Source: a virus (taxonomy: Duplodnaviria > Heunggongvirae > Uroviricota > Caudoviricetes). Taken from it: 9,088 nt of DNA. Positions 1 to 8,286 of this stretch are shown here, in pieces. The notes beneath the pieces are model-generated. The model did no database searches and was not told the origin of the DNA. It was given only the letters and a program-made list of their open reading frames with translations. A program made the translations under genes and the position numbers. The stretch's first letter is position 1. Each line of letters begins with the position of its first letter. The DNA lies in the IMG/VR virus record IMGVR_UViG_2684622669_000014; one strand, 5' to 3'.

Positions 1-74
1 AGGCATGTGGTGAGGCGTTTCTGGCGCAGGTTCGCCTGCAGGCGGAAAAGCTGGTCAGGGAGATGGCGGCATGA
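1..74 (+). CDS. 3' end of an unidentified upstream nin-region gene (5'-truncated by the window edge)
   Basis: Frame 3 is open from the window start and ends at TGA 72-74 (C-terminus ...LQAEKLVREMAA), forming an ATGA start/stop overlap with the next gene at 71. Too short to identify; not in the ORF track because it has no start in the window. Confidence 0.4.
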   Translation, partial: ACGEAFLAQVRLQAEKLVREMAA

Positions 75-397
75 CGACGTTAACTCAATGCCAGCAGCAG
101 GTGCTGGATATGCTGATTTCTTATCAGAAAGAGCGTGGCTTCCCGCCAACCAATCAGGAGGTGGCAACCATGCTGGGATACCGTTCGGTGAATGCAGCGG
201 TGGAGCATCTTCGCGCACTGGAGAAAAAAGGCGTCATCACGATAAAGCGTGGTGTGGCCCGGGGGATCACGCTTCATACCGCGGTGAAGGACGACGACAG
301 CGAGGCGGTCGGGATTATCCGCTCACTGCTTGCCGGTGAGGAAAACGCAAGGCTGCGTGCAACTCACTGGTTACATGAGAGAGGCCTGAAAGTATGA
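71..397 (+). CDS. LexA-like winged-helix DNA-binding domain protein lacking the S24 peptidase domain (108 aa)
   Basis: ORF 71..397 with SD AGGGAG 57-62. The N-terminal ~70 aa resemble the LexA N-terminal DNA-binding domain as I recall it (LexA ...[55 protein letters not shown]... vs here LTQCQQQVLDMLISYQKERGFPPTNQEVATMLGYRSVNAAVEHLRALEKKGVITI). Stop overlaps the rusA start (ATGA). Confidence 0.75.
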   Translation: MTTLTQCQQQVLDMLISYQKERGFPPTNQEVATMLGYRSVNAAVEHLRALEKKGVITIKRGVARGITLHTAVKDDDSEAVGIIRSLLAGEENARLRATHWLHERGLKV

Positions 398-783
398 AGC
401 TGATCCTGCCTTTCCCGCCCAGCGTGAACACCTACTGGCGACACCCCAACAAAGGGGCATTTGCTGGTAAGAGCCTGATAAGCGCGGCGGGGCGAAAATT
501 TCAGAGCGCGGCGTGCGCAGCAATAGTTGAGCAGTTACGTCGTCTGCCAAAACCAACGTCGGCACCTGCTTCAGTGGAGATCGTGTTGTTTCCTCCGGAT
601 AACCGGATCCGCGATCTGGACAACTATAACAAGGCGCTGTTTGACGCCCTGACCCACGCGGGTGTGTGGGAAGACGACAGACAGGTGAAAAGAATGCTGG
701 TGGAGTGGGGACCGGTTATCCCGAAAGGGAAGGTCGAGATCACTATCAGTAAGTATGAGAAACCGGCGGGTGCAGCCGCCTGA
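394..783 (+). CDS. rusA: RusA-family Holliday junction resolvase (crossover junction endodeoxyribonuclease)
   Basis: 129-aa ORF with RusA signatures (LPFPPSVNTYWR, DLDN, FDALTHAGVWEDDRQV). Translationally coupled to the upstream gene via ATGA overlap; typical nin-region position upstream of Q. Confidence 0.9.
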   Translation: MKLILPFPPSVNTYWRHPNKGAFAGKSLISAAGRKFQSAACAAIVEQLRRLPKPTSAPASVEIVLFPPDNRIRDLDNYNKALFDALTHAGVWEDDRQVKRMLVEWGPVIPKGKVEITISKYEKPAGAAA

Positions 784-1613: not shown

Positions 1614-1955
1614 GTGACCGTGAGAGCACTACTGACCCCTGAAATTGCCCCGCGTATGGGGATCGTATTGTTCAGGCCAGGTTCAGAGCTGATGCCCCTG
1701 TTTATGCAGGGGCGTGTCCTGCTGGAGCCTGAGCCGGAACGTTATTCATCTTTTGCCAGTGGTGCCGTTCCGGCTGCATCACAACCGCTGGCGGATGATC
1801 CTGCCGTTCGGGCCGTGTTCCGCAATGAGGCAGTGATCCGTCGTGCTGGTGGCGTGGAATGTCTTGAAAGCTGGTTACTTCGTGAAAAAGGCTGCCAGTG
1901 GCCTCATTCCGACTGGCACAGCGAGAACATGACCACAATGCGAAGCAACGGATAA
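1614..1955 (+). CDS. Hypothetical phage protein; possibly the N-terminal part of a YdfU/DUF968-like gene that continues in another frame
   Basis: 113-aa ORF starting with GTG immediately after the KilA-N stop. No recognisable motif. The downstream frame-1 ORF is open from 1933 and overlaps this ORF's 3' end, suggesting one gene interrupted by a frameshift. Confidence 0.5.
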   Translation: MTVRALLTPEIAPRMGIVLFRPGSELMPLFMQGRVLLEPEPERYSSFASGAVPAASQPLADDPAVRAVFRNEAVIRRAGGVECLESWLLREKGCQWPHSDWHSENMTTMRSNG

Positions 1956-1968
1956 CTGTGCCCGCTGG

Positions 1969-2529
1969 GTGTTGTCTGTTGTGCGTCGGGATCTCGGTTT
2001 TGATGACAGTCACGTTGTGACAATGCCGGAACTATGCTGGTGGCTGATTCGTAATGATCTGGCGGATGCCTTACCGGAAAGTGCAGCCCGTAAGGCACTG
2101 AGATTACCGAAGCCTTTTGTGCCGTCTGTCACCCGGGAAAGTGACCTAGTGCCTTCGGTTCCTGCCACCAGCATCATCCAGAATAAAGCGAAAAAGGTGC
2201 TGGCGCTGAAAGTGGATCCGGAGTCGCCGGACTCTTTTATGTTACGCCCAAAACGTCGCCGCTGGGTTAATGAAAAGTACACGCGATGGGTTAAGACGCA
2301 GCCGTGCGCATGTTGTGGAAAACCTGCTGATGATCCCCACCACCTGATAGGCCACGGTCAGGGTGGAATGGGGACAAAAGCGCATGACCTCTTTGTGTTG
2401 CCTTTGTGCAGAAAGCATCACGACGAGCTGCATGCGGATACTGTGGCATTCGAAGAGAAGTATGGCTCCCAGCTGGAGCTGATATTTCGTTTTATCGATC
2501 GTGCGCTGGCGATTGGTGTGCTGGCCTGA
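1969..2529 (+). CDS. YdfU/DUF968-like prophage protein with Cys/His cluster (putative zinc-binding, HNH-like)
   Basis: 186-aa ORF containing [14 protein letters not shown] ... CRKHHDELH. Sits immediately upstream of Q, as the DUF968 gene ydfU does beside the Q homolog in the K-12 Qin prophage (from memory). Start is uncertain: GTG 1969 or ATG 2027, both without a clear SD. Confidence 0.6.
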
Positions 2530-3022: not shown

Positions 3023-3051
3023 AGCCAGCCTCCCCAAAGGCTGGTTTTTTT
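3023..3051 (+). terminator. Rho-independent terminator, candidate tR' (target of Q antitermination)
   Basis: GC-rich hairpin CCAGCC(3025-3030)-loop TCCCCAAA-GGCTGG(3039-3044) followed by T-run 3045-3051. The minus-strand reading has no U-tail, so it is + oriented. Confidence 0.7.
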
Positions 3052-3079: not shown

Positions 3080-3604
3080 TTATTGTTTAACCCATAATAA
3101 TTCATTGACATTGAATCCCAACTTTTGAGCGGTTCGCACATAGTCTGCTTTTACTTTATCTGGAATAGTTGGGGTCCTTGCCAGAATCCATAGGTATTCT
3201 CTGTTCGGACCACTGACAAGAGCATACTTATACTCATCATCCAGTTTGATTACATTATAGCCACCATAGAAGGGGCCAAAAAACGAAACCTTCAACGCTG
3301 CAGTTTTAGTATCTCCAGTAAAGTATGCTTTACCTTCGCTCTCGCTCCATTTATTTTTCGTTGGATCGTATCCACGGTTAAGTACACGAATCCCTCCGTC
3401 GTTCCGTTTTCCATAAGTAGCGCTGACCTGTTCCAGACTACGTTCGAACCGGTTCTCGAGGCGAGCTATTTCATACCATTTTCCGAGGTAGCGGTTGGCG
3501 TCAAAATTTGTAATCGGCTGCACACCTTTAGGTGGTGTCGGGGCCTTACATGCTATAAGAGTGAAAGAGAGTGCAATGCCAGTCAACACAGGCCATAACT
3601 TCAT
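3080..3604 (-). CDS. Bacterial lipocalin (Blc-like) outer-membrane lipoprotein
   Basis: 174-aa ORF with a lipoprotein signal peptide and lipobox (LIAC) and lipocalin motifs close to E. coli Blc as I recall it (NFDANRYLGKWYEIARLENRFER, GKAYFTGDTKTAALKVSFFGPFYGGYNVI, YLWILARTP). Convergent with late transcription from pR'. Confidence 0.9.
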   Translation of the reverse strand: MKLWPVLTGIALSFTLIACKAPTPPKGVQPITNFDANRYLGKWYEIARLENRFERSLEQVSATYGKRNDGGIRVLNRGYDPTKNKWSESEGKAYFTGDTKTAALKVSFFGPFYGGYNVIKLDDEYKYALVSGPNREYLWILARTPTIPDKVKADYVRTAQKLGFNVNELLWVKQ

Positions 3605-3796
3605 AATAAATCCTGTACTTTTGATAGTTGAGAGTAAGTATGAAAGATAGATGATTACGACCGATCACTTAAAGAACTTTCATACTATATTAGGAATAGT
3701 CCATAACAGAAAAATTGTCAGTGATGACGCCAGAAAGGCAATTTATTCCGTGCACTACACAGTTTATGTGTTAATGAATTAGTCAAGGGGGAGGAT

Positions 3797-4756
3797 ATGA
3801 TAAAAAAACCTGTGATTGGAATTAGCGGTTGTTTGGCCGGTTCTGCTGTTCGTTTTGATGGTGGTCACAAAAGAGCTGACTTTTTAATGGACAAATTAGT
3901 GGAATGGGTAACATTCAGACCAGTATGTCCGGAAATGGCTATAGGGCTGCCAGTTCCGCGTCCTGCTCTACGTCTTGTGCGCTCGACGCAAGGAAATATA
4001 CGGATGTGTTTCAGCCACGACCAGAATGAGGATGTGACAGAGAGAATGACAGAGTTTAGTCGTTCTTATATGGACAAATTAAAGGATGTATCGGGGTTTG
4101 TGGTTTGTGCTAAATCTCCCAGCTGTGGCATGGAGCGCGTGCGTGTCTATGATGAAAATGGTAATCGAGGTCGTAAAGATGGAGTGGGACTATTTACGAG
4201 CACTTTGATGGAAAAGTTTTCCTGGCTACCGGTTGAAGAGGATGGGCGATTACATGATCCAGTGCTTCGTGAGAATTTTGTTGAAAGAGTTTTTGCTTTG
4301 CATGAGCTCAATCACCTTTACAAGGAGAAATTATCAAGAAGAGAGTTATTAGCTTTTCATAGTCGTTATAAGCTTCAGTTGTTGGCGCATAGTCAGGCAG
4401 GCTATAAAGATATGGGACCATTTGTGGCTGCAATACACGAGTGGGCGGACCTTGAATCATACTTTGAGGTGTATCGTGATAAGCTGATGGCGATTCTCAG
4501 AAAACCTGCATCACGTAAAAATCACACGAATGTGCTGATGCATATACAGGGGTATTTTAGTAACTACTTAAGTACACGCCAGCGTAAAGAGTTGAGCGAG
4601 GTTATACTTAACTATCGTTCTGGCACATTACCTCTTCTTGCGCCGTTGACTCTGCTGAAGCATTATCTGGGTGAGTATCCTAATGACTACTTGCTTACAC
4701 AGAATTACTTCGATCCCTATCCGGACGAACTGGCTCTAAGACTGATGGTAAATTAA
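3797..4756 (+). CDS. DUF523-DUF1722 fusion protein (TudS-like Fe-S thiouracil-desulfidase domain plus YbgA-like C-terminal domain)
   Basis: 319-aa ORF with strong SD GGGGGAGG 6 nt upstream. N-terminal domain carries the conserved cysteines expected of DUF523/TudS [4Fe-4S] proteins (GISGCLAG, PVCPE, CAKSPSCG); C-terminal half resembles DUF1722/YbgA. Mid-range GC, unlike the phage backbone. Confidence 0.85.
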   Translation: MIKKPVIGISGCLAGSAVRFDGGHKRADFLMDKLVEWVTFRPVCPEMAIGLPVPRPALRLVRSTQGNIRMCFSHDQNEDVTERMTEFSRSYMDKLKDVSGFVVCAKSPSCGMERVRVYDENGNRGRKDGVGLFTSTLMEKFSWLPVEEDGRLHDPVLRENFVERVFALHELNHLYKEKLSRRELLAFHSRYKLQLLAHSQAGYKDMGPFVAAIHEWADLESYFEVYRDKLMAILRKPASRKNHTNVLMHIQGYFSNYLSTRQRKELSEVILNYRSGTLPLLAPLTLLKHYLGEYPNDYLLTQNYFDPYPDELALRLMVN

Positions 4757-5107
4757 TTGTATGCGATATCATCCAAAAGGATGAGTTCCTGCATGCAGGA
4801 TATTTACAATCGTAAAAACTACACTATGATACCCAGAGTGTCAGTTTGTATAAAAACTCTGTTTACGCTGAAGAAACCATTGAGATGCAACTTAAAGTTG
4901 GTAAACATGCCAGTCAAAATATATAATATTATGATTCCACGCAGCTATATATAATATAACAGATTGGTTTAATAATTTGCCTTTGTGAGTTAAATACATA
5001 ATTTTATACTTGTGATGCAATGAGATTTTCCTTATTGTTGAACTGGCGAATATTGATTTTCCACCTATACTTACCTGGTGTAACCCCAATGATATCAGGT
5101 GGATAAT

Positions 5108-5839
5108 ATGCCATACATATGTTCTATCATTTTGGTGTTGAACTCGTTTGATGTCCGAATTGGTAAAGAAGATATTTTGTTTAAAAAAGGAAGTGCTGTT
5201 CTCATTGATTACAATTTAAAAGATTTTTTTTCATCAAATATAGATCATGTAATGATCGTAGATATTGAAGAGAAAACAGTTAATGATTTCTTTAAAAGCA
5301 ATACACTCTCACCTTTTTCTGTAAGAAGGTTTTATCCGGCATACTTGATGGTGGAGTGTGAAGATTTTTCATTGTTAAAGAATTTGATTGCATGCTTGAA
5401 TTGTGATGGCAGAACTGTGGATTTTGTTAGAAATCAAATATCACTTGCATGTCTTGCTATCTTATCTTCAGAGAAAATAGTGCAAAGTTTTTTATTTGGA
5501 TGTCTTAATAGTTTAGGAAGTAAAGTTAAGGCTATTATTCACACGGATATATCTGCAGCATGGAGACTTTGTGATATATCTTCAAGACTGTATTTGAGTG
5601 AAAGTCTGTTAAAAAGAAAATTAAAGCACGAAGGCTTATCATTTAGTAAGTTAATTCTTGAAGAGCGAATGGTGATGGCGGAAAGGTTATTAAGCTACAA
5701 TTTATATTCTGTTGGAAAAGTTGCTGAGATATGCGGTTATGAAAACACGTCATATTTTGTAAGTGTTTTCAGAAGATATTTTGGTGTTCCTCCCCATCAA
5801 TATTCATCAAGATTTTTTTTAGAAAAAGACATGATGTAA
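5108..5839 (+). CDS. AraC/XylS-family transcriptional regulator (Rns/GadX-like, AT-rich)
   Basis: C-terminal ~100 aa show the AraC double-HTH signature (LSFSKLILEERMVMAERLL...SVGKVAEICGYENTSYFVSVFRRYFGVPPHQY). ORF track starts at GTG 5099; I prefer ATG 5108 with SD AGGTGG at 5097-5102. Strongly AT-rich by eye, with a ~350-bp AT-rich upstream region. Confidence 0.8.
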   Translation: MPYICSIILVLNSFDVRIGKEDILFKKGSAVLIDYNLKDFFSSNIDHVMIVDIEEKTVNDFFKSNTLSPFSVRRFYPAYLMVECEDFSLLKNLIACLNCDGRTVDFVRNQISLACLAILSSEKIVQSFLFGCLNSLGSKVKAIIHTDISAAWRLCDISSRLYLSESLLKRKLKHEGLSFSKLILEERMVMAERLLSYNLYSVGKVAEICGYENTSYFVSVFRRYFGVPPHQYSSRFFLEKDMM

Positions 5840-6243: not shown

Positions 6244-6740
6244 TGCCTCCATCATTACGAAAAGCCGTTGCTGCTGCTATTGGTGGCGGAGCAATTGCTA
6301 TAGCATCAGTGTTAATCACTGGCTCAAGTGGTAACGATGGTCTGGAAGGTGTCAGCTACATACCATACAAAGATATTGTTGGTGTATGGACTGTATGTCA
6401 CGGGCATACAGGAAAAGACATCATGCCCGGTAAAACGTATACCAAAGCAGAATGCAAAGCACTCTTGAATAAAGACCTTGCCACTGTCGCCAGACAAATT
6501 AACCCGTACATCAAAGTCGATATACCGGAAACAACGCACGCCGCTCTTTACTCATTCGTTTACAACGTGGGTGCTGGCAATTTCAGAACATCGACGCTTC
6601 TTCGCAAAATAAACCAGGGCGATATCAAAGGCGCATGTGATCAGCTACGTCGCTGGACATATGCTGGCGGTAAGCAATGGAAAGGTCTCATGACTCGTCG
6701 TGAGATTGAGCGTGAAATCTGTTTGTGGGGTCAGCAATGA
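6243..6740 (+). CDS. R: SAR endolysin (phage-21 R-type lysozyme, T4 lysozyme-like fold)
   Basis: 165-aa ORF with a Gly/Ala-rich N-terminal signal-anchor-release segment ([20 protein letters not shown]) followed by a lysozyme domain. Start overlaps the holin stop (TAATG); stop overlaps the Rz start (ATGA). Confidence 0.9.
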
Positions 6741-7201
6741 ACAGAGTAACCGCGATTATCTCCGCTCTGGTTATCTGCATCATCGTCTGCCTGTCATGGG
6801 CTGTTAATCATTACCGTGATAACGCCATTACCTACAAAGCCCAGCGCGACAAAAATGCCAGAGAACTGAAGCTGGCGAACGCGGCAATTACTGACATGCA
6901 GATGCGTCAGCGTGATGTTGCTGCGCTCGATGCAAAATACACGAAGGAGTTAGCTGATGCGAAAGCTGAAAATGATGCTCTGCGTGATGATGTTGCCGCT
7001 GGTCGTCGTCGGTTGCACATCAAAGCAGTCTGTCAGTCAGTGCGTGAAGCCACCACCGCCTCCGGCGTGGATAATGCAGCCTCCCCCCGACTGGCAGACA
7101 CCGCTGAACGGGATTATTTCATCCTCAGAGAACGGCTGATGACAATGCAGAAGCAACTGGAAGGAGCACAGGAATATATCCGTACCCAGTGTATACCGTG
7201 A
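6737..7201 (+). CDS. Rz: Rz inner-membrane spanin (i-spanin), lambda-type
   Basis: ORF track starts at 6725, but ATG 6737 ([21 protein letters not shown]...) gives the canonical Rz N-terminal TM segment and an ATGA overlap with the endolysin stop. Coiled-coil-rich periplasmic domain; near-identical to lambda Rz as recalled. Confidence 0.88.
6957..7139 (+). CDS. Rz1: Rz1 outer-membrane lipoprotein spanin (o-spanin), embedded in the +1 frame of Rz
   Basis: 60-aa ORF wholly inside Rz, SD AAGGAG 6944-6949. Lipoprotein signal with lipobox LVVVGC and proline-rich mature part ([15 protein letters not shown]), as in lambda Rz1. Confidence 0.82.
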
Positions 7202-7666: not shown

Positions 7667-7981
7667 ATGCTACATGATCACCTGGCAGAATGTCTGGAGA
7701 AAAAAGGACTGTACCGGAGAGCAGCTGAACGATGGGCAAAAGTGATGGTACAGCTAAGTGATGACCAGAAAAGAAAAGTGGCGGCACAGAAACGAGCAGA
7801 GTGTTTGCGTAAGGCGCGCCGGACTCCGGTTTCACCGGTGAACCTGACAGAAATAAAACAAGCGGTCAACAGACTACATTCTGAGTTGGGAATGGGATTT
7901 GAAGAGCGGCGGGTATTCCGACGATATAAAGGGACAGGAGAACAGAATACGTCCGGAAACGCGCGGTCAAAAAAATGCTAA
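7667..7981 (+). CDS. PerC-family-like small transcriptional activator (Pch/PerC homolog candidate)
   Basis: 104-aa basic ORF with SD GGAGG 7656-7660. N-terminal LEKKGLYRRAAERWAKVM resembles the PerC/Pch signature as I remember it (..LE.KGLWRRAA..W..V). Preceded by a long AT/T-rich tract. Confidence 0.55.
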   Translation: MLHDHLAECLEKKGLYRRAAERWAKVMVQLSDDQKRKVAAQKRAECLRKARRTPVSPVNLTEIKQAVNRLHSELGMGFEERRVFRRYKGTGEQNTSGNARSKKC

Positions 7982-8061: not shown

Positions 8062-8286
8062 TTAAGTAAACCTGTCTGAACAGGTGCTCTGGTCGTGTTT
8101 GTCTTTGTTGGGTAAAAATTGAGAATATTTTTCATTAATTAATCTTCTTCTGCAGGCTTCAATAACCCACGCTGAAAAATTCCCTGAACCTTTCTGGTCA
8201 AGAGCAATATTAATTTGTTCAATCATCTGGTTTGGAAATCGGATGTTGCGGGTTGTTGTTCTTCGGGTTCTGTTCTTCGATGACAT
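8062..8286 (-). CDS. YlcI/DUF3950-like small prophage protein (putative ribbon-helix-helix type)
   Basis: 74-aa ORF on the minus strand; NIRFPNQMIEQINIALDQKGSGNFSAWVIEACRRRL matches what I recall of DLP12 YlcI, which also sits immediately upstream of the Nu1 homolog. Confidence 0.7.
   Translation of the reverse strand: MSSKNRTRRTTTRNIRFPNQMIEQINIALDQKGSGNFSAWVIEACRRRLINEKYSQFLPNKDKHDQSTCSDRFT

Follow-up and report, generated by a model that had tools for sequence, protein, structure and literature searches.

A 9,088-nucleotide (nt) stretch of Caudoviricetes DNA (IMG/VR virus record IMGVR_UViG_2684622669_000014; the whole stretch is called the window here) encodes, near its beginning, a LexA-like protein of 108 amino acids (aa). 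We find that this protein is probably a small phage regulator derived from proteobacterial LexA. It carries the LexA winged head and, in place of the LexA hinge and S24 domain, a helical hairpin of ~35 residues. Our favoured reading, which we hold tentatively and a little short of even confidence, is that it would act as a dimeric, RecA-insensitive LexA-type binder of SOS-box-like operators, in trans, and would be made in lytic growth. We put it no higher because binding is deduced from sequence and because part of the family has diverged recognition helices.

The gene is already known as an annotation, by homology, in PGAP, PHROG 362 and GenBank phage records, a point missed by the first-pass annotation of this DNA. 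Existing names include 'LexA family transcriptional regulator' (PGAP), 'LexA-like protein', 'LexA DNA binding domain protein' and 'repressor, lexA family'. What is newly found is the conserved hairpin, purifying selection on the gene, a recognition helix identical to that of certain LexAs, the association with DUF968, and the SOS-headed operons of a sister clade. The first-pass annotation had placed the open reading frame (ORF) at positions 71–397, which is correct, and had proposed a non-inducible binder of LexA operators. That idea remains plausible from the sequence, and is now better grounded by the contact residues, the LexA-identical helix, the conservation of helix and wing, and the sister-clade SOS boxes.

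Fold and conservation of the LexA-like protein

Residues 1–65 match the entire Pfam model LexA_DNA_bind (PF01726, positions 1–65 of 65) with E = 2.9e-19; the score is 69 bits, where the cutoff of the model is 23.7. In the same Pfam profile search, Peptidase_S24 (PF00717) gives no match in the 108-aa protein even at E ≤ 1. The NCBIfam lexA equivalog, TIGR00498, is aligned over positions 1–91 of 203 at 70.8 bits, below its cutoff of 110.95, and the protein is not LexA proper, being without the C-terminal S24 domain with its Ser119/Lys156 dyad. PHROG 362 ('transcriptional repressor') is matched over the full length (residues 1–108 versus positions 1–106 of 106, E = 1.1e-59). A sequence search of the PDB returns the LexA N-terminal domain 1lea (E = 7e-16), with full-length LexA also at the top (E ~1e-15), and BLASTP aligns 90 residues with E. 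coli LexA at 43% identity (E = 8e-22). In defence-system libraries, the single match for the protein is a weak winged-helix match to a CARF model.

An AlphaFold2 monomer model, built on 17 family members, has a predicted local distance difference test score (pLDDT) of 82.6. It has LexA topology: three helices and a two-strand wing, then a linker and two more helices. In Foldseek, the head of the model superimposes on the E. coli LexA-DNA complex 3jso with a root-mean-square deviation of 1.0 Å over 68 residues (50% identity). The fold and the Pfam match together bear out the earlier call of a LexA N-terminal winged helix. Pairwise ratios of nonsynonymous to synonymous substitution rates (dN/dS) against close homologues are 0.05–0.3 (0.05–0.11 against three close homologues); this is a real gene under purifying selection. 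Its parts are as follows.

71..397, + strand: 108-aa LexA-like gene, stop codon counted (ATG-to-TGA ORF; PF01726; PHROG 362; dN/dS)
71..274, + strand: LexA-type winged helix-turn-helix, residues 1–68 (AlphaFold2; Foldseek 3jso), with helices at residues 6–22, 28–35 and 40–52 and strands at 56–58 and 66–68 (AlphaFold2)
185..226, + strand: recognition helix SVNAAVEHLRALEK, residues 39–52 (alignment to E. coli LexA)
236..274, + strand: beta wing, residues 56–68, with R64, G65 and I66 invariant (family alignment)
275..292, + strand: linker, residues 69–74, variable in sequence (pLDDT <50 at 71–75; column identity 0.40)
293..379, + strand: two-helix hairpin, residues 75–103, with helices 75–88 and 93–103 (AlphaFold2, pLDDT ~88)

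Within the hairpin, every family member down to 38% identity has A97 and L101, as well as a hydrophobic residue at each of positions 82, 83, 86, 87 and 100. No PDB match in Foldseek covers this tail. We infer that the hairpin may provide the dimer contact otherwise given by the LexA C-terminal domain. The first-pass annotation had the product ending before any S24 domain. It is right that there is no S24 domain, but the winged helix is not the end of the protein, being followed by the conserved 35-residue hairpin.

A88-G89, in the hairpin, aligns with the LexA cleavage site A84-G85, both in HMMER ('rsllage' versus 'grvaage') and in BLASTP. The pair varies in the family, being replaced by A-N, V-G, E-R, T-R and others, and the segment is predicted by AlphaFold2 to be helical, whereas it is a strand-loop that enters the active site of S24. 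Because the pair is unconserved and predicted helical, we consider A88-G89 doubtful as a functional cleavage site.

Recognition helix and SOS boxes

In E. coli LexA, the residues that contact DNA are S39, N41, A42, E44 and E45 (PMC3091678). Four of the five are kept in the phage protein (S39, N41, A42 and E45), with V in place of E44; V40 replaces P40. Residues 39–46, SVNAAVEH, form a helix identical to that of four full-length LexAs from betaproteobacterial assemblies (L025, L027, L030 and L031), each of which has an S24 domain and a GRVAAGSP cleavage site. Tandem CTGT-N8-ACAG boxes lie 0.5–1.2 kb upstream of lexA at these four loci. At the two examined in detail, L027 and L030, the chromosomal order is rdgC, tandem boxes, a small membrane ORF, lexA and a comEA-like gene, and the tandem boxes head the lexA operon. 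There (L027:3456-4609, L030:3393-4603), the boxes are 20 bp apart, the membrane protein is predicted and has ~140 aa, and lexA is second in the operon. Distant family members most often have the helix SPNAAAEH, which a further full-length LexA (L032) shares. By these alignments, V44 and A44 are natural LexA variants, and since they occur in full-length LexAs beside canonical boxes, we infer that both are compatible with the canonical SOS box. In a family whose members are just 38–50% identical overall, no segments are better conserved than the recognition helix and the wing (mean column identities of 0.78 and 0.76, respectively).

The window itself contains no exact CTGT-N8-ACAG, as the first-pass annotation had noted, and sites with up to two mismatches to this pattern number 35, versus a shuffle expectation of 34.8. 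We also used a position weight matrix made of 21 E. coli boxes, on which the counts of exact patterns do not depend; with it, no site reaches 10 bits in the window, and none does so in 27 kb of DNA from the related prophage L001. Any SOS-box target must therefore lie elsewhere. The family loci, ~209 kb in all, contain 14 exact copies of CTGT-N8-ACAG, as against 1–2 of each of the other three central-base variants. Strong SOS boxes lie upstream of dinI in phages mEp460 and mEp390.

Two further boxes in these loci deserve mention in their own right. The same strong box, [TC]ACTGTAAAAATAAACAGTG, is found in SfV (L003, 34170-34189), mEp460 (L004, 41021-41040) and L012 (7739-7758); in each, it coincides with, or falls shortly within, the annotated start of a DNA methyltransferase gene of the late region, which lies between Q and the lysis genes. 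LexA apparently controls this methyltransferase gene, whose start codon may be misannotated. Another box, TACTGTTTTTACATACAGTA (25.8 bits), lies in mEp460 at 31970-31989, within the coding sequence of an S24-type prophage repressor (31506-32153, - strand).

Two kinds of private operator were sought and rejected. Palindromes of 5+5 bases (spacers 0–14) common to L001, SfV and mEp460 number 99, all in shared coding DNA; they sit at homologous offsets, and none is multi-copy or intergenic. Half-site variants of the form CTNT-N6-10-ANAG show no enrichment, the canonical G at N8 alone standing out.

SOS boxes are a regular feature of a sister clade whose proteins have an N-terminal extension (L010, L011, L012, L015, L016, L028 and L029). 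At each of these seven loci, the operon with the LexA-like gene is headed by a sigma-70-like promoter overlapped by strong SOS boxes (L010:4533-4579, L012:4530-4580, L015:485-532, L016:4242-4277, L011:3514-3548, L028:3467-3486, L029:3306-3325). These boxes score 12–27 bits with the same matrix, and each locus has at least one of at least 17 bits. The operon runs from the SOS box through dinI, recA or nothing to phrog_1813, the LexA-like gene, phrog_1212, RusA (where present), DUF968 and Q. The SOS-box promoter of L010 and that of L012 are closely preceded by a terminator-like hairpin. The loci are related by descent, and so are not seven independent events. These arrangements are consistent with a gene that travels with SOS and recombination functions and that, in the sister clade, would itself be SOS-controlled, as lexA is.

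The phrog_1813 product of this operon has 75–82 aa, and L010 and L011 encode short HTH_3 repressors without an S24 domain. Sister-clade prophages may be induced via the LexA-controlled operon, with phrog_1813 as a candidate antirepressor.

Proposed function and its alternatives

According to our favoured reading, the hairpin would supply the dimer contact, and the dimer would read CTGT-type, SOS-box-like palindromes through the SVNAAVEH helix. We propose a CTGT-type target because the same helix is found in full-length LexAs with tandem-box operons. Without Ser119/Lys156 and a working cleavage loop, the protein could not be inactivated by RecA*. It would be made in lytic development, once host LexA is cleaved, and, acting in trans, would bring SOS-box promoters back under repression. 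Its targets could be the host SOS regulon and genes under SOS control in the phage itself or in co-resident elements, among them dinI, the late-region methylase, and the antirepressor or Q operons of rival prophages.

A broader version of this proposal, which we regard as possible and rather unlikely, is that prophages in ~40% of E. coli genomes, Stx2 phages included, make a RecA-proof LexA mimic that would shut the host SOS regulon down again and silence SOS-controlled rivals (antirepressor or Q operons, colicins); in the sister clade, it would form a non-cleavable negative-feedback loop on an SOS-driven, Q-ending operon. If the protein does bind SOS boxes, induced lambdoid prophages, including Stx2 phages, would carry a damage-proof SOS off-switch. 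Effects could then be expected on induction timing, Shiga-toxin output, and competition among co-resident prophages and colicin plasmids, as well as on SOS mutagenesis under antibiotics and on how SOS reporters in lysogens are interpreted.

It is useful to set the protein beside known systems. E. coli LexA (3JSO, 1LEA) has a homologous winged head, shares the contacts S39, N41, A42 and E45, and has the same R64-G65 in the wing. Unlike LexA, the phage protein is without the S24 peptidase/dimerisation domain, has the hairpin, and carries V for E44; its gene lies in an early operon, whereas chromosomal lexA is an autoregulated locus. In its proposed behaviour, the protein would resemble LexA(Ind-) mutants and the LexA 1-84 fragment, which are likewise operator-reading heads that RecA* is unable to remove. 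LexA(Ind-) forms are laboratory mutants, and LexA 1-84 is a short-lived cleavage product, degraded by ClpXP, with a VAA-COOH end. The window protein, by contrast, is natural and conserved, has a C-terminal module of its own, and is without the VAA-COOH end.

The closest phage counterpart is gp6 of GIL01, a Bacillus thuringiensis tectivirus (PMC6182141). Like the window protein, gp6 is a phage-encoded LexA head without the protease domain (it matches PF01726 at 51.6 bits), encoded in the early operon of a temperate phage with SOS-tied biology. It is 44% identical to the host LexA head, has a reworked recognition helix with K38, binds a palindrome of its own and turns on a late promoter (PMC6182141). 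In contrast to the window protein, which keeps a genuine LexA helix, gp6 has 66 aa and is without a C-terminal hairpin. BLASTP of the window protein against gp6 yields no alignment (versus E = 8e-22 for E. coli LexA); the two are therefore independent truncations of different host LexAs. Compared with truncated LexA homologues of other phages, then, the window protein is set apart by an independent origin from proteobacterial LexA, a helical tail, a LexA-like helix and a fixed association with DUF968 and RusA.

Several observations weigh against the idea of an SOS-box binder. E44 is never kept in the tail-bearing family, where position 44 is V, A, T, F, L or Y, and this change, taken alone, would suggest altered specificity. 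That the V44 LexAs bind the boxes of their own loci is itself presumed from sequence. Some members have diverged helices (QNTVFIH in P0242, SNAVLLH in P0168, PYAAYEH in P0219, VNTIAGH in P0086), and for the first three of these the upstream SOS boxes stay canonical despite the divergence. Thus, not all family members can read CTGT, and the family as a whole is, judging from its helices, not locked onto one target sequence. Moreover, an upstream SOS box would be evidence of control by host LexA, and would not show that the encoded protein binds there. The constant companion of the gene is DUF968, which is no SOS target. The structure modelled is that of a monomer, from which dimerisation through the hairpin is an extrapolation. 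The only characterised precedent, GIL01 gp6, has shifted specificity and activates transcription (PMC6182141), and full-text literature searches returned no study of the enterobacterial protein.

The association with DUF968 was assessed across 16 distinct family contexts, spanning 38–100% protein identity. DUF968 lies downstream of the LexA-like gene in every one of the 14 contexts with enough downstream sequence (in the other two, L013 and L019, the contig stops within the downstream ORF), and RusA does so in 12 of the 16. Q comes after DUF968/RusA, and a DNA methyltransferase often precedes the LexA-like gene. DUF968 matches HNHc_6 and RecA_dep_nuc weakly, and has weak similarity to the P1 Ref type. 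On one contig there is a natural fusion, P0158 (L011:5001-5723, 240 aa), of a LexA-like winged helix with the C-terminal HNH half of DUF968. P0158 is without the hairpin tail, rusA and the DUF968 N-terminus, and looks like the product of a deletion; its prophage encodes RecA behind SOS boxes.

Apart from an SOS-box binder, the explanation to which we give most weight, although we think it unlikely, is a private regulator analogous to gp6, in which the head would be retuned to a phage palindrome and the protein would activate or repress phage promoters, perhaps timing late or accessory genes, leaving the host SOS regulon unaffected. A precedent is gp6, a LexA homologue in truncated form, which recognises GaCACAnnTGTGaC and switches on the late promoter P3 (PMC6182141). 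Unrelated phages often encode LexA_DNA_bind proteins that stand alone, and the ever-altered position 44 and the diverged helices of several members point the same way. Against this stand the helix of the window protein, identical to that of genuine LexAs, and the truncation independent of gp6. The nin module also has almost no intergenic DNA, and neither the shared palindromes nor the CTNT-N6-10-ANAG variants gave a candidate, although this is not a test of binding. Less probable again, in our view, is that the protein is no transcription factor at all and would serve the DUF968 and/or RusA nucleases as a partner that tethers or gates them on DNA. The recurrence of both neighbours over such a range of identity would be explained, as would the ATGA coupling to rusA that recurs in distant homologues, the P0158 fusion, the weak nuclease-like matches of DUF968, and the presence of dinI and recA in the same operons. 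However, lambdoid nin gene order is kept by descent, and synteny alone is therefore weak evidence; P0158 stands on a single contig; and the strong conservation of a base-reading helix argues for sequence-specific binding. Qin ydfU (DUF968) and DLP12 rusA also count against partnership, residing in prophages that we take to be without a LexA-like gene. Were the protein to serve DUF968/RusA, it would provide a first handle on DUF968, a very common prophage protein.

Two other explanations find little favour with us. A captured lexA that lost its 3′ half and survives as a dead remnant would account for the HMMER alignment running through the LexA hinge to the A-G cleavage motif, as truncation would give. 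It is very hard to reconcile with the low dN/dS, with a hairpin whose A97 and L101 are invariant down to 38% identity, with a ribosome-binding site and translational coupling to neighbours, and with intact copies in 2222 of 5426 complete E. coli genomes. The A88-G89 alignment with LexA A84-G85 could also mean that the protein is a decoy or competitor, cleaved in trans by host LexA or by RecA*-activated CI-type S24 proteases, or inhibiting them competitively. Kim and Little are said to have reported, in 1993, that the LexA C-terminal domain cleaves intermolecularly, which counts in its favour. The replacement of the A-G pair in family members and the helix, not strand-loop, predicted for this segment make such a role highly improbable.

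Gene neighbourhood and distribution

The window begins in the early-right (nin) region of a lambdoid prophage, where the first-pass annotation had rightly placed the gene: the dam C-terminus, the LexA-like gene, rusA, KilA-N, DUF968 and Q follow in this order, which is also annotated in E. coli RM14516, SfV and mEp460. The other features are as follows.

3-74, + strand: last 24 codons of a phage Dam methyltransferase (translated upstream frame ends at 74)
58-63, + strand: GGGAGA ribosome-binding run (read from the sequence)
71-74, + strand: ATGA overlap of dam and the LexA-like gene (dam TGA 72-74 shares bases with ATG 71-73)
377-384, + strand: GAGAGAGG ribosome-binding run, preceding the rusA start
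394-397, + strand: ATGA overlap of the LexA-like gene and the rusA start (read from the sequence)
394..783, + strand: rusA, Holliday-junction resolvase (PF05866 RusA, E = 1.3e-14)
803-1612: KilA-N protein gene
1614..2529, + strand: DUF968 (YdfU-type HNH protein), split in two ORFs (PF06147, E = 4e-81, second ORF; PHROG 96, both)
2553-2924: antiterminator Q (window ORF)
3080-3604, - strand: Blc-type lipocalin, in the low-GC block
3797-4756: YbgA-type 2-thiouracil desulfurase/DUF1722 protein, in the low-GC block
5099-5839: AraC-family regulator, in the low-GC block
6725-7201: Rz, with Rz1 (6957-7139) embedded within
7667-7981, + strand: second PerC-family activator gene, 3′ of the lysis genes
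8062-8286, - strand: DUF3950 (YlcI/YnfO-type) gene, 3′ of the lysis genes

Each of the two ATGA overlaps has a purine-rich, Shine-Dalgarno-like run 7–9 nt 5′ of it, and intergenic DNA is almost nil in the nin module of the window. The same 4-base overlap with rusA is seen in mEp390, L007 and L013. Read from these signals, the overlap at 394-397 is one of translational coupling to rusA, in agreement with the first-pass annotation. The upstream neighbour is annotated as a phage N-6-adenine-methyltransferase in L001, SfV and mEp460. A separate S24 repressor (ymfK / cI) lies at the immunity region, ~4 kb upstream, in the related prophage and in SfV. The LexA-like gene is not of this CI type, for which a helix-turn-helix joined to S24, a place in the immunity region and divergence from cro are characteristic; it lies in the nin region.

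Of 5426 complete E. coli genomes, 2233 (~40%) carry DNA of the LexA-like gene, in up to four copies each. Near-identical copies are found in SfV (orf42), SfII, SfIV, cdtI, mEp460, many Stx2c and Stx2a phages, and others. SfV orf42 and mEp460 gp46 are the same gene, with 95–100% protein identity and the order dam, gene, rusA, KilA-N, DUF968. Tail-bearing relatives of 38–52% identity occur in Citrobacter, Salmonella, Hafnia, Klebsiella, Enterobacter and Buttiauxella, and a scan of contigs with a 5-sequence alignment gave 13 loci. The 'phage repressor pr' gene of EcN, which shields K-12 from lambda and Stx phages (PMC5987069), was suspected from its size to be the same gene. This was rejected, its primers being absent from the window and from the loci then in hand.

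Several proteins of other lineages carry tandem LexA DNA-binding domains on one chain, without S24 (P0132, P0133, P0149, P0152, P0153, P0155, P0156, P0159, P0160, P0163, P0167 and P0186). These are pseudo-dimers, another way round the loss of the dimerisation domain.

The DUF968 gene of the window is split into a 113-aa ORF (1614-1955) and a 186-aa ORF (1969-2529) in differing frames, and it diverges from the intact L001 and L021 alleles directly after ~1944. The appearance is that of a pseudogene or of a mosaic junction. Beyond Q, a terminator at 3023-3046 is followed by a block of low GC content (3080-5839, 31–43% versus 50–57% in the nin region), with holin, lysozyme and Rz/Rz1 beyond it. 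A cargo block in this position, between Q with its terminator and the holin gene, is where Stx phages carry stx.

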